From the IMG/VR virus record IMGVR_UViG_3300033067_000130, positions 1-24,681 of that record: a stretch of DNA of 24,681 nucleotides. One strand, written 5' to 3'. Both the position numbers and the translations under genes were made by a program. Position 1 is the first letter of the stretch, and each line of letters starts with the position of its first letter. The DNA comes from a virus. Lineage: Duplodnaviria > Caudoviricetes. Shown piece by piece: positions 19,232 through 23,334 of the stretch. The notes under the pieces are model-generated. The model saw only the letters and a program-made list of their open reading frames with translations. It was not told where the DNA came from and did no database searches.

Positions 19232-19327
19232 GTTCCACCTCCACTTATTGGTGCGCCAGAAGGGGCTGTTTACACCCCTATAGGGAAAATCAAGTTTTCT
19301 CTGGGCCGACCAAATTTGCAGGTAGAA

Positions 19328-20047
19328 CTACCCAACTGGTTTGCGGAAGCCGTTGTTGATGTGAGCGACCTTCCAGGCGTGGGCGTGCTGCTCGTCGGTA
19401 ACGAGATGGGCGCGGGCCTGAAGCCAGTCGAACAGATCGGATTCCCAGAGGACGTAGCACTTCCAGCCGCGCTGGGCGTAGAACTCCTTGACCCGGCGTT
19501 CCTCGTCGCGGTCGGGATGCCAGTAGGTGCCGAAATACTCGTAGACGCGCTTGTTCGCCTCGTCCACGAAGTCGGGGATGCGCTGGCCCACCCGGCGTCC
19601 TGTGCCGTGCTGGAAGCCCAGAGCGGCCATGTAGGGCACCAGGGCGAGTTCATGCTTGGACGTGCGCTTGCGAGTGCCGTAGTGGCGGTTGCGGCGGCGT
19701 CCTTCAGCCTTGGCCTTGGCGTGATCGGCCTTTCTAGCCTCAGACATGCGACGAGATACCTCGGCTCGTTTCTCGTCAGTCCAGGCCGCTCTAGTGGCAG
19801 CAGTTTTCTCAGCACGGCCCTCGTAGACGCCGGACTCCCACTTCTTCTTGGTGGCCTGTCGCTGAGCCTCTTTGTATTCATCGGTCTGACGGTACGACGG
19901 GTCTTCAGTCTTCTTGGCTTCACGCAAAGCAGCAATCCGACGAGCTTCTTGCTCAGGCGTGCGAGCAGCCGCAGACCTTTTTCCTGCCTCACGCAGCTTC
20001 TGTCGAGTCTCCTCGGTGATGGGTTTCCGAGTGCGCTTCTTTTCCAT
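19328..20047 (-). CDS. Free-standing homing-endonuclease-like protein: NUMOD3-like basic repeats plus Vsr/EDxHD-like nuclease (239 aa)
   Basis: N-terminal KPITEETRQKLREA, RTPEQEARR, WTDEKRAEVSRRMSE. C-terminal SKHE...IPDFVD...VYEYFGTYWH...GWKCYVLWESDL. Confidence 0.82.
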   Translation of the reverse strand: MEKKRTRKPITEETRQKLREAGKRSAAARTPEQEARRIAALREAKKTEDPSYRQTDEYKEAQRQATKKKWESGVYEGRAEKTAATRAAWTDEKRAEVSRRMSEARKADHAKAKAEGRRRNRHYGTRKRTSKHELALVPYMAALGFQHGTGRRVGQRIPDFVDEANKRVYEYFGTYWHPDRDEERRVKEFYAQRGWKCYVLWESDLFDWLQARAHLVTDEQHAHAWKVAHINNGFRKPVG

Positions 20048-20082
20048 CCAGCAAATCTACCCTGGATTAGACTAGCTTTCAA
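20048..20082 (-). promoter_or_regulatory. SigA-type promoter, probably giving a leaderless mRNA for the Vsr-like endonuclease
   Basis: TTGAAA (20082-20077), 17 nt, TAGATT (20059-20054), 6 nt, ATG (20047). No SD before the ATG. Confidence 0.72.
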
Positions 20083-20124
20083 TACTCCTGCTCAGACCCT
20101 GTTTTAAGGTTAAACTGGAGTACT
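20081..20124 (-). terminator. Imperfect stem-loop right after the tail tube stop (terminator or RNA-processing/stability element)
   Basis: AGTACTCC-A-GTTTA-ACCTT-AAAAC-AGGGT-C-TGAGC-A-GGAGTATT pairs over three helices with G-U pairs. No U-tract follows. Confidence 0.45.
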
Positions 20125-20590
20125 ACACCGGCGTGGAGTAACAGTACTGGAACGTCAGGGTGCGGGGGATCGTCATGGTCCCGATGTTGACGTTCTCCCC
20201 CTCGTCCACGTCAGTCACCACCACTGAGTGGTACACCTTGGCCCGCATGATGCCGGACGGGCTCTTGATGACCTTCTGCATGGAGATGGAGCCCAGCGAA
20301 ATTTGCCGCTTGAGGACATCCAGCAAATTGTAAGTGCCCTGCAGACCAGGCAAAGCACTCCATACAGGAAAATTCCAAAGCTCATAGAAAGAGCATCTTA
20401 GGGTACCCACACCTACTGCCATGGCCGTGACAATCTCCAGCGGGACCGACTCGTCAATCGGCTGCACTGCCTGGGCCGATGCCACCGGGGTGGGCGGGGT
20501 GTCCTGCAGCTGCTGTAGGTAGGCCAGCCGCAGGTTCTGGAACAGCATGGTGGTAAACCCACTGCCGCCAATTCGGGTCTTGGATTCCAT
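20123..20590 (-). CDS. Tail tube protein (155 aa)
   Basis: Size, position after the sheath, and gp19-like pattern (QPID...EIV...GTL...YELWN...YHSVVVTDVDEGE...TLTFQY). SD GAGGAGGT. Confidence 0.87.
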   Translation of the reverse strand: MESKTRIGGSGFTTMLFQNLRLAYLQQLQDTPPTPVASAQAVQPIDESVPLEIVTAMAVGVGTLRCSFYELWNFPVWSALPGLQGTYNLLDVLKRQISLGSISMQKVIKSPSGIMRAKVYHSVVVTDVDEGENVNIGTMTIPRTLTFQYCYSTPV

Positions 20591-21153
20591 TAGACGGCCA
20601 CCTCCTCAAGCTCGGAGGGAAGGCCAGCTTCCCTCACCTCGGTGTAAGTGACCACCACCAGGCGATGGCCCAACGTGACGAAACTGTCGATCTTCTTAGC
20701 CGCCTCATCGGTCAGCCAAGCCTTGATTTCCACCCATGTGTCGGAGCCGGGGAGATAGAAGTCGGGCATGTAGGTGGCCCACCCCAGATCGAAGCGGCGT
20801 GGCTCGTATTCCCAGGCCACACCGTGTCGGTCGAGTTTCTCCGCAAACAGAACCTCGGACTGGCTACGCATGTTGATCTGACCGGAAGGGCCGCTGTAGA
20901 CGCACCACTTGTTCTTGAAGTGATTCGTCTTGTCGGCACGCCCCTCTTTGTAGGCCAACAGACCGGCTGCGCTGAGCTTGGCGCGGACCTCGGGGGTGCG
21001 AGGGACACCTTTCTGGTTGCTCCAAGCATTACCAGGGATGGAGCGGCGCAGGCGCATTGCCTCGGACATACGTGCCCGCTGCTCTGGCGTTCGCTTCTGA
21101 CCCCGACGAGCATCGGCTGACCGCCGACGCTGCTCAGGTGTCAAGTTGTCCAT
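20590..21153 (-). CDS. Free-standing homing-endonuclease-like protein: NUMOD3 repeats plus PD-(D/E)xK nuclease (187 aa)
   Basis: GQKRTPEQRARMSEA and KGVPRTPEVRAKLS (NUMOD3). MRSQSE..FAEKLD..GVAWEYEP...YMPDFYLP..DTWVEIK. SD GGGAGGTG. Inserted between sheath and tube. Confidence 0.85.
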   Translation of the reverse strand: MDNLTPEQRRRSADARRGQKRTPEQRARMSEAMRLRRSIPGNAWSNQKGVPRTPEVRAKLSAAGLLAYKEGRADKTNHFKNKWCVYSGPSGQINMRSQSEVLFAEKLDRHGVAWEYEPRRFDLGWATYMPDFYLPGSDTWVEIKAWLTDEAAKKIDSFVTLGHRLVVVTYTEVREAGLPSELEEVAV

Positions 21154-21187
21154 CGGTGGTCACCTCCCTCGGGTCGTTGCTTGAGAC

Positions 21188-22756
21188 TTAGGTCGATTGC
21201 AGGGTGTTGGACGCGCCGCCGAAGTCGTTGATGATCGAACTCGTCGGGATGCCGATTTGGCCGGTCGTCTGGCCTGCGCTGGTGATGTTGGCGATGTTGG
21301 AGCCGGTGCCACTGTTGGAGGTCAGGTTGCCGGTGGAAAGGCTGACCGAGAATGTGACAACGATGTAGTTCAGCGGGAATGCGGGCAGCCAGCTGTAGCT
21401 AACTTCCAGCACGTCGGGATTGGTCGCCAATTGACGCACCTTGAGCCCGGTGTAGTCCACAATTAGACCGTCCCGAATAAGGCTCTGAAGTGCAGCTTCA
21501 GCCGATCCCTTAACGTTAATTAATGTGAAGGGGTAAATGGGCTGACCAATCAAATTATCTGATTCCAGATAATCCCGCAAACGATATACCATTGCATCTT
21601 CTTGACCAATGATCGACCATTCCCGGCTCAGCAAATCGGTCGGGTCGGTGGAAACTCCGTGCCGGACCTGGACGATCTGGCGGCGGGTTTTCTCCACCAC
21701 GCACAGCCCGTTCTGGCTTTCCAGGTTCTTCTGGCCGTCCTGCTCAAACTCGTCCACACCCATCCAGCCGGTGACCGTCTTGCGAGTCAGCGGCATGGCG
21801 AAGGACTGGTGGACGGTGATCCCGGCCAGCGAGGCTGCCATGTACTGCCCACCCAGGATCACCGGCTTGTTCAACTCCGCAGAGAAGTAGTTGAAGGTGC
21901 CGGGGCAGACCAGCATGATGCGCCGGTCGGTCAGTTCCTGGGCGTCGATGATGCGCTGGCTGGAGGACACCGGGGTGGTGGTGCCGTCGAGGCCGACGAT
22001 GGCGCGACGCTCAAAGCGGTTCTCGCTCTCAAAGTCCACATGCTCTTGGATCAGCTGGTGCAGCGGCTGGGCTCCGCTGTCGGCGCAGATGACCGCGATC
22101 AGCGGCTGGTTCTTGAGCTTGTCGAGGGCGTCGCCGTAGTCGCCCACGGTGGCGTTCCCCGGCGTGGTCGAGGACTGCACCGCGCACAGCACCACTTGGT
22201 AGGCACCGTTCAGGAACGCGAATTTCGCCATCAGCGTCAGACCGGAGTTGATCGCCCCGGTCGTGGTGTTGAACGGCTCGCCGTAGGCAGCCCGCACGTC
22301 GTCGTAGTCGTAGAAGATGTACGGCGTGTAGTACGTCGGGTCGGTGTAGTTGTACTTGACCTGGATGTAGTCACCCGGCTGGAGGTGCCCGCCGTCGATT
22401 ACCCGCTTGATGGCGTAGGTGGCGTTGGAGGTGCCGTTGGTGCCGCCGACGTTGACCACGGTGTAGTCGGTCGCCACCACATAGGGCACCCCGGTGTTGG
22501 GGTTGATGACCTGAACCGACGTGGTGTCGATGCCCTGCTGCGCGAGCGTCTGCGTCGCGCTGGGGGTGGTGTCGTTGGTGTCGGGGTTGATCTGCACCGT
22601 CTGGATGAAGCTGCGGTAGCCCTGCGTCTGGCCGATGATGCCGACTGCGGTGGGCTGAGTGCTGTTGACCGCCAGCTGCGGTCCCGGCATCCGCTGCGAG
22701 TAGACGCCCGGTGGAAGGTAGTGCGAGAAGTCGATGATGCTACTGGGCGTTGCCAT
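21188..22756 (-). CDS. Tail sheath protein (522 aa)
   Basis: Start moved to MATPSS at 22756 (SD GGGAGG). YLPPGVYS, AVGIIG, AFLNGA, ERRAIVG, PLTRK, LESQNGLCVVE...VRHGVST, VSYSWLPAFPLNYIVVTF are sheath motifs. Confidence 0.93.
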   Translation of the reverse strand: MATPSSIIDFSHYLPPGVYSQRMPGPQLAVNSTQPTAVGIIGQTQGYRSFIQTVQINPDTNDTTPSATQTLAQQGIDTTSVQVINPNTGVPYVVATDYTVVNVGGTNGTSNATYAIKRVIDGGHLQPGDYIQVKYNYTDPTYYTPYIFYDYDDVRAAYGEPFNTTTGAINSGLTLMAKFAFLNGAYQVVLCAVQSSTTPGNATVGDYGDALDKLKNQPLIAVICADSGAQPLHQLIQEHVDFESENRFERRAIVGLDGTTTPVSSSQRIIDAQELTDRRIMLVCPGTFNYFSAELNKPVILGGQYMAASLAGITVHQSFAMPLTRKTVTGWMGVDEFEQDGQKNLESQNGLCVVEKTRRQIVQVRHGVSTDPTDLLSREWSIIGQEDAMVYRLRDYLESDNLIGQPIYPFTLINVKGSAEAALQSLIRDGLIVDYTGLKVRQLATNPDVLEVSYSWLPAFPLNYIVVTFSVSLSTGNLTSNSGTGSNIANITSAGQTTGQIGIPTSSIINDFGGASNTLQST

Positions 22757-22839
22757 GTCGCCTCCCGGTGCTGCGTATAAACTCAGAGCGCTGCTGGATG
22801 TAACTCTCACTTCTTCTGGCGCGCACAAGGGGAATTCAC

Positions 22840-23334
22840 ATGACTGTCTGGTACGAGATTCCGAATTTCCCCGGCTATAGGATCAGCGTCCTGGGCGAGA
22901 TTCTTGACCTCAAGAGGGAGCCCCCGCGCCCGCTGGAGGTCAGCGTCGATCCCGCGTCCGGCTACGCCCAGGTCTGCCTGGACCGGCGCGGCGAGCCCCA
23001 CGCTCTGCGGGTGCATACCCTGGTAGCCCAGGTCTTTCTCGGAACACCCCCAACGGGGGCAACGGTCATCCACGTCAACGGGAATCGGGCCGACAACCGG
23101 GCCGGGAACCTGCGCTACGACAACCCTGTTCACCATGAATCGGCCCGCACCCACTGCGACGCCGGACACGAGTTCACGCCGGACAACACCATGTGGCGTT
23201 GGGGCAAGGGCGGCAAGGCCGGGGGTGTGCGCTACCGCAAGTGCCGCAAGTGCCACGCCGCCTACATGGCCCGCTATAGGTCGAAGCGCAAAGCTACACC
23301 CAGCGGGGGTCGCGGGGAGGACGGCTCGGGTTAG
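22840..23334 (+). CDS. HNH homing endonuclease (NUMOD4-HNH, I-HmuI-like, C-terminal Cys/His Zn domain; 164 aa), antisense to the operon
   Basis: WYEIPNFPGYRISVLGEI (NUMOD4), VHTLVAQVFLG..P....VIHVNGNRADNRAGNL, THCDAGHEFTPDNT...RKCRKC. SD AAGGGG at 22827-22832. Confidence 0.88.
   Translation: MTVWYEIPNFPGYRISVLGEILDLKREPPRPLEVSVDPASGYAQVCLDRRGEPHALRVHTLVAQVFLGTPPTGATVIHVNGNRADNRAGNLRYDNPVHHESARTHCDAGHEFTPDNTMWRWGKGGKAGGVRYRKCRKCHAAYMARYRSKRKATPSGGRGEDGSG

Follow-up and report, generated by a model that had tools for sequence, protein, structure and literature searches.

The tail sheath gene of the phage described here carries, in its most conserved part, an island of A/T-ending codons that is an almost purely synonymous rewrite. 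We give a probability of about 50% to the reading that this island is an orphan homing scar, i.e., a stack of short cleavage-resistant co-conversion blocks not tied to the nuclease gene (nuc2) behind the sheath gene; a scar of mobile DNA-cutting genes is favoured because the island is also found in relatives without this nuclease gene. The patchy character of the rewrite, the blocks shared between distant phages and the nuclease-linked gene-end replacements in cultured relatives speak for this reading, while the cultured tracts, which are terminal and abut their nucleases, speak against it, as the island described here is internal.

Genomic Setting

The window, which means the whole stretch of DNA analysed (a virus record of 24,681 bases), holds the tail operon of a myovirus that is kin to Mycobacterium phage Phrappuccino and to Gordonia and Rhodococcus myoviruses. 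The metagenome runs containing it are for the most part aquatic, wastewater, sludge and digester runs. On the minus strand the order of genes is sheath, nuc2, tube and nuc1, and one more endonuclease gene lies on the opposite strand:

21188..22756, minus strand: tail sheath gene, 522 aa (phrog_2839 tail sheath, E = 2e-188)
20590..21153, minus strand: optional PD-(D/E)xK endonuclease gene nuc2, 187 aa (PHROGs endonuclease matches; NUMOD3-like N-terminus)
20123..20590, minus strand: tail tube gene, 155 aa (phrog_2756)
19328..20047, minus strand: Vsr-like endonuclease gene nuc1, 239 aa (cluster members named very-short-patch-repair endonuclease)
22840..23334, plus strand: NUMOD4-HNH endonuclease gene upstream of the sheath gene (PF13392, E = 4e-8)

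The sheath shares 59.5% identity with that of Phrappuccino, and the tube 62% with a gene annotated as tail tube in Rhodococcus phage E3. In relatives, the sheath-tube neighbourhood is occupied by at least three nuclease families. No sheath relatives were found in prokaryote genomes. Some sheath homologs (P0009, P0011, P0017, P0019, P0027, P0035, P0041, P0086, P0208 and P0209) are 720–1040 aa long and carry large insertions past residue ~63, which in the inspected ones are repeated T/G/S-rich modules.

The Island in the Sheath Gene

The island and its weaker continuation are located as follows:

21461..21610, minus strand: A/T-third-position island, sheath codons 383–432 (33 of 50 codons A/T-ending)
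21332..21460, minus strand: weaker A/T tail, codons 433–475 (9 of 43 codons A/T-ending, p = 0.01)

The island had been reported in a sequence-only reading of the window, and its count of 33 A/T-ending codons is borne out (21 end in T and 12 in A), with 5.2 of 50 expected from the gene's own codon usage and 49 of 472 such codons in the remainder of the gene; over 20,000 within-gene permutations, the best 50-codon window reached 22 (p < 5e-5). Its spot check at 21841–21900, given as 2 of 20, is in effect 2 of 21 in-frame codons, and the sheath frame passes through the island with no stop, as had been stated. The island had also been called sharply bounded, which holds at its left edge (8 of 50 A/T-ending codons in 333–382) and fails at its right edge, where the composition tails off; in L030–L032 codons 433–475 have 15–16 of 43, and the elevation extends to about codon 475. 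Past the island there are 90 further sheath codons, mostly GC-ending, and the distance from the island to the start of nuc2 is 308–457 bp.

The island lies in the most conserved protein segment of the sheath, with 84–90% identity at residues 376–450 across 53 homologs vs. 51–81% elsewhere. Codons 376–425 are separated from those of the close relative L011 by 24 synonymous and 2 non-synonymous changes. Inside the island, at window positions 21508–21521, an A/T palindrome of 8 bases overlaps one of 10 bases; both are present in the window allele only.

Blocks Shared between Distant Phages

Islands were scored in 29 sheath lineages plus the cultured Gordonia phages Pupper and SCentae, with p < 1e-4 for an island call; the duplicates L012, L013, L022 and L023 were dropped, and L018 was left out because its contig ends inside the sheath gene. 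Besides the window (33 of 50), the island is present in L011 (17), L026 (25), L030 (21), L031 (30) and L032 (16 of 50). These carriers stand in three places of the sheath tree (window with L011; L032; L026 with L030 and L031), with island-free lineages interspersed. Two pieces of the island are shared:

21575..21598, minus strand: shared block A, codons 387–394 (codon alignment; same in the window and L031, near-identical in L026 and L030)
21476..21502, minus strand: shared block B, codons 419–427 (same in the window and L031; contains a 6-bp inverted repeat)

Distant island carriers thus share synonymous blocks of 24–27 bases despite a protein identity of 62–64%. Between the window and L031 (62% protein identity) there are identical runs of 8 and 9 codons, the latter, in block B, being the longest run (p = 0.0003), and an 18-base piece of block B has three matches among viral contigs, all of them in the sheath genes of L026, L030 and L031; a sheath pattern search gave no further contigs. 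Where several codons were possible and both phages end in A/T, the same A/T codon as in the window was chosen in 13 of 15 cases by L031, 10 of 13 by L026 and 9 of 11 by L030. The positional overlap of A/T codons between L032 and the window is not significant (p = 0.49), and the L032 island may be independent in origin.

In the tree of the island-region protein each phage stays in its own clade, and in blocks A and B short donor-type sequence is shared across lineages against the gene tree, as would be expected of a co-conversion tract or homing scar. The sharing pattern fits short converted patches or a common selective agent, not the transfer of a whole segment.

It seems unlikely that the islands are recombination patches from lower-GC relatives that were possible only in a highly conserved segment and involved no nuclease. 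The island does coincide with the peak of protein conservation, lower-GC members of the family exist (L023/L033, 54–55% GC), nucleotide blocks are common to distant phages, and one terminal tract in the cultured phages partly matches a relative. Nevertheless, at the amino acid level the island groups every phage with its own clade, the lower-GC L033 is without blocks A or B, and the A/T-ending share of the island (66%) is higher than that of any sampled sheath gene outside the island (0.25 at most).

nuc2 and Its Insertion Junction

nuc2 combines a nuclease domain with a DNA-binding module, as free-standing homing endonucleases do, and is an optional gene precisely inserted beside conserved genes; it is plausibly a mobile endonuclease. 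Its NUMOD3 match is under the cut-off, its profile matches T7 endonuclease I (E = 2e-4), and the best PDB match of its predicted model, a weak one (E = 0.009), is the catalytic domain of the homing endonuclease I-Bth0305I. The catalytic core PDFYLP...(V/I)E(V/I)K is conserved in 21 aligned homologs. The gene is missing in L011–L013 (91% sheath and 98% tube identity), where an identical 37-bp spacer separates sheath and tube. It is inserted at the tube start, where it begins on the ribosome-binding site of the tube gene and provides, with its 3' end, a replacement for this site.

Contigs were compared with the window in 4 of 24 listed runs. In one of them, run X3, a nuclease-free contig (record 8) is identical to the window over 19626–20557 and 21149–21308, and the joint 20557–21149 holds 28 other letters, with 0 differences elsewhere. 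The sole host-gene difference between the window and this otherwise identical contig is therefore the 5' end of the tube gene:

20558..20585, minus strand: tube 5' end, candidate nuc2 target region (synonymous differences in codons 6–11)

Sheath codons 483–522 are identical with and without nuc2 in this run. The contig ends at 21308, short of the island, and an identical island stands on a separate contig. Tube codons 6–11 vary also among nuclease-free strains, and because of that the tube 5' end is only a candidate target; on these junction sequences, the insertion junction or the tube 5' end is more likely to be the target of nuc2 than the sheath island.

Several further observations concern the nuc2 family. 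Three homologs, P0187–P0189, end in sheath-like C-terminal residues. In genome G003 (=L031) a homolog at 61925–62557 lies between baseplate genes, ~11 kb away and not at the sheath-tube junction. At 131 loci with distant nuc2-like genes there was no match to sheath, tube or other non-nuclease neighbour genes, and a subfamily DNA pattern search gave no match. Directly behind the homolog in L033 (L033:8477–8535), an 11-base insertion interrupts the tube gene after codon 13 and brings an in-frame TAG within an inverted repeat, after which come a possible new ribosome-binding site and an ATG; the L023 tube has an in-frame stop too. The L033 interruption may represent another means of destroying a target, or else be bypassed in translation.

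Does the Island Follow a Nuclease?

According to the sequence-only reading, island and nuc2 form one module, i.e., nuc2 cuts the GC-rich sheath allele at 310–460 bp upstream, while the island protects the carrier's own allele, so that nuclease-free island carriers would have lost nuc2 or captured the tract. We consider this unlikely. Among the island carriers the window is the one lineage in which nuc2 separates sheath and tube, while the nuc2-family carriers L033 (11 of 50 on a background of 0.13), Pupper (1 of 50) and SCentae (0 of 50) have no clear island at the homologous site. One of the 4 carriers and 5 of the 26 non-carriers thus have the island (Fisher p = 1, a rough test because the lineages are related), and these five lineages without nuc2 carry it at the same site, which the reading itself had named as the outcome that would speak against it. 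One of them, G001 (=L026; 96% complete, 25 of 50), has no nuc2 homolog in its genome and only two distant HNH-like matches. In addition, the only host-gene change found in cis with nuc2 loss is in the tube 5' end.

Some observations agree with such a module. T4 free-standing endonucleases are described as cutting hundreds to thousands of bases from their own gene (PMC2988022), the nuc2 family associates with the sheath 3' end in Pupper/SCentae and in P0187–P0189, the nuclease-free L011 carries only half an island, and run X3 has no contig that bridges the nuclease-free junction and the island.

As a partner of the island, the upstream HNH gene (22840–23334) was rejected, having homologs in the island-free L014, L016 and L018 and being missing at the site in the island-bearing L026, L030 and L031. 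Among the relatives examined, no nuclease was found whose presence follows that of the island. We also found no sheath interrupted by an intein or nuclease at the island site; the long homologs inspected have N-terminal insertions only, which is weak evidence.

It had further been proposed that GC3 dips could predict nuclease targets. In genomes G001–G004, a recognisable nuclease stands next to 2 of 23 within-gene islands (by home-made gene calls and limited nuclease seeds), and GC3 dips alone are therefore a poor predictor.

The Tube Island and nuc1

A similar tract is found in the tube gene:

20297..20434, minus strand: second A/T island, tube codons 53–98 (23 of 46 codons A/T-ending; polymorphic among close strains)

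Over these codons L011–L013, with a 98% identical protein, have 2–4 of 46 A/T-ending codons, and L016, L017, L030 and L032 have 21–27 of 46. The distance to nuc1 is 250–387 bp. In run X3 the tube island occurs in cis with the nuclease-free junction. As an immune allele of nuc1 it was rejected, since its 5' part is missing in cis with nuc1 in run X4, where record 15 joins nuc1 to an L012-like GC-rich tube allele at 20 of the 21 positions displayed (5 L012-matching positions lie in codons 53–65, and 166 more difference rows lie beyond those displayed).

Two different Vsr-like genes alternate behind the tube, that of the window (19328–20047) and that of L012/L013 (L012:4144–4938), and both forms occur in run X1. 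No match to nuc1 was found among cultured phages. The tube genes of L016 (L016:7603–8067), L017 (L017:1698–2162) and L032 (L032:7670–8134) have a GC3 of only 0.61–0.68, with ~0.9 in flanking genes; no nuclease adjoins them, and TTA codons are present in L016 and L017.

Cis Elements and Mutation

It is improbable that the island is a cis element in coding sequence (promoter, protein-binding site, RNA hairpin or translational pause) of some lineages. The five carriers do have invariant cores of 11 and 15 bases, there are short inverted repeats, and the island folds with z = −2.95 against dinucleotide shuffles. Against synonymous-codon shuffles, however, the sense strand reaches only z = −1.25, the carriers fold differently and there is no Rfam match in the island, so no conserved RNA fold was found; an antisense fold (z = −3.07) is seen in L026 only. 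The shared cores have no exact repeat elsewhere in the window or in G001–G004, the other five frames across the island hold 3–5 stops each, leaving no overlapping gene, and the tube island is missing from strains with a 98% identical protein. No sigma-70-type site lies within the island, and the promoter profile of the phage family, built from 19 sheath-gene leaders, scores 5.6 there, with a cut-off of 12 that mostly selects intergenic sites. The element behind this profile is located ahead of the sheath gene:

22805..22842, minus strand: predicted phage-family promoter motif upstream of the sheath gene (TGTRAA, ~17 bases, purine-rich box), which recurs ahead of sheath genes

This bipartite motif has a second window match starting at 19276 (minus strand), is found also in G003 and G004, and stands 45–102 bp before many other gene starts; it is likely a late promoter.

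A local mutational hot zone (e.g., error-prone repair) filtered by strong protein selection is very improbable: synonymous differences between the window and L011 do peak at the island (11–13 per 25 codons, with mostly 1–7 in other bins and 12 in the first), but independent mutation would not lead distant phages to agree on the A/T codon in 13 of 15 choices.

Nucleases and Rewritten Gene Ends in Cultured Gordonia Phages

Pupper and SCentae are described as the first Gordonia myoviruses (PMC6965592). Both carry a nuc2 homolog (35–37% identity) directly behind the sheath gene, which CherryTomatoes (98–99% identical over the region) and Skog do not. The sheath genes of Pupper and CherryTomatoes differ in 15 of 583 codons, of which 14 lie within the last 22; these 14 changes are all synonymous, and the number of A/T-ending codons is 9 vs. 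2. The module thus consists of the last 22–23 sheath codons, synonymously rewritten, then the nuclease, and then a copy of the original sheath end. Two other optional genes show replaced ends as well:

L074:3968–4860, L075:4117–5009 and L006:5190–5370: Pupper/SCentae endonuclease module
W02 121470–122230 and W03 122525–123050: two optional HNH-type genes abutting replaced, A/T-shifted 3' ends

In SCentae, the replacement before the HNH-type gene spans 44 codons (34 differ, 9 of them non-synonymously; A/T-ending codons 25 vs. 3), and in CherryTomatoes it spans 13 codons (6 vs. 1). One HNH assignment is by a sub-threshold Pfam match and the other by motif and 37% identity to the first. The 13-codon tract partly matches phage Skog, and because of this, part of it was imported and not newly recoded. 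At the second HNH site Pupper has a different HNH gene (48% identical) with almost no tract.

In the whole-genome comparison (four of six possible directional comparisons, 151–156 ortholog pairs each), only these three genes passed the terminal-tract threshold, which was set after the first case (9 or more changes among the last 22 codons, with an A/T gain of 4 or more). Against a general rule, the seed set gave 6 optional nuclease insertions for the Gordonia trio, of which 3 are without an A/T-gain tract, and one such tract (SCentae gene 93277–95151) has no nuclease beside it. Terminal, carrier-specific A/T tracts are, in this small sample, a good predictor of a nuclease. The earlier idea that the mobile unit is a nuclease plus a recoded piece of the upstream gene is therefore supported for three optional nucleases in Pupper, SCentae and CherryTomatoes, where the tract is terminal (13–44 codons) and abutting, unlike the island of the window, which is no replacement tract of the Pupper type with its 90 codons to the gene end.

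Proposed Origin and Meaning of the Islands

To hypothesize, the orphan scar would arise in the following way. Free-standing nucleases would cut the GC3-rich common allele of conserved genes during mixed infections. Silent escape from C/G-ending codons would lead mostly to T/A, and resistant alleles would therefore appear as GC3 dips. Mobile endonucleases would in this way select or deliver the blocks, and the resistant tracts would spread by co-conversion and persist or spread without nucleases, either outlasting the nuclease or being picked up by nuclease-free phages. The nuclease could be lost, e.g., by recombination between direct repeats flanking the module, and the flanking repeat present in Pupper would permit survival of the tract past nuclease loss. 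More broadly, and only tentatively, the conserved structural-gene cores of GC-rich actinobacterial myoviruses may keep a readable record of endonuclease conflict, in which A/T-shifted blocks of the size of a recognition site stack, detach from nucleases and move between phages with ~62% protein identity.

In the Gordonia trio, carrier and empty phages form near-isogenic pairs, and the candidate protected site consists of a compact silent rewrite; target and immunity, which are known for only a minority of free-standing phage endonucleases, are therefore testable at once. Should the internal islands be resistant alleles that lost their nucleases, dips of codon usage in essential phage genes would be records of earlier nuclease conflict. 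This would account for one sort of synonymous mosaicism and provide a natural model of how homing drives are resisted; the blocks would then be gene-drive resistance alleles of natural origin, which GC3 alone would suffice to map. If the islands are merely recombination patches, they are an ordinary mosaic.

Comparison with Known Systems

Fungal mitochondrial homing endonuclease genes insert near the 3' end of a gene and supply a replacement end (atp6/atp9/rps3). The anatomy of Pupper and SCentae matches this type, with a replacement 3' end, a nuclease and the duplicated original end, whereas the island of the window is internal, and with the nuc2 insertion it is the 5' end of the downstream gene that is changed. 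The co-conversion tract of cox1 has been used as a footprint after intron loss. The present case resembles co-conversion at the plant cox1 intron in that a short donor exon tract moves with a homing element (as described in PMC8393795), and differs from it in that no intron or intein was found at the sheath site and phage free-standing nucleases are concerned instead.

Among phages, T4 free-standing endonucleases are described as having distant cleavage sites with co-conversion of flanks (PMC2988022), and T4 MobE as nicking a conserved region of a downstream gene in which carriers differ (PMC2790892); polymorphic core genes beside HNH insertions are also described (PMC12724721). As in T4 seg/mob and MobE-nrdB intronless homing, insofar as these accounts describe it, an optional nuclease lies between essential genes with a conserved coding target, the carriers' target sequence differs, and flanks are co-converted (PMC2988022, PMC2790892). 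Unlike in T4, the predicted enzymes here are PD-(D/E)xK and Vsr-like, the phage is a GC-rich actinobacterial myovirus, the recoding in the window is dense and visible as a GC3 dip, and the island is unlinked to the adjacent nuclease.

The HEG-islands of Barth et al. 2023 (PMC10448857) are described as having interchangeable nucleases around the tail operon, with PD-(D/E)XK replacing HNH, and a high nucleotide identity between otherwise distant phages, which is similar to our case; those are multi-gene blocks, whereas here the shared pieces are 24–27 bases inside one gene, and the word "synonymous" occurs 0 times in the main text of that paper. In the titles and abstract openings searched, which included few subscription papers, there was none on A/T-shifted synonymous tracts beside free-standing nucleases in actinobacteriophages, and the supplements of PMC10448857 could bear on this point. 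The principle of intronless homing with co-conversion is already known; new are the silent tracts visible in the sequence, a cultured set of near-isogenic phages for testing, and internal tracts without a nuclease.
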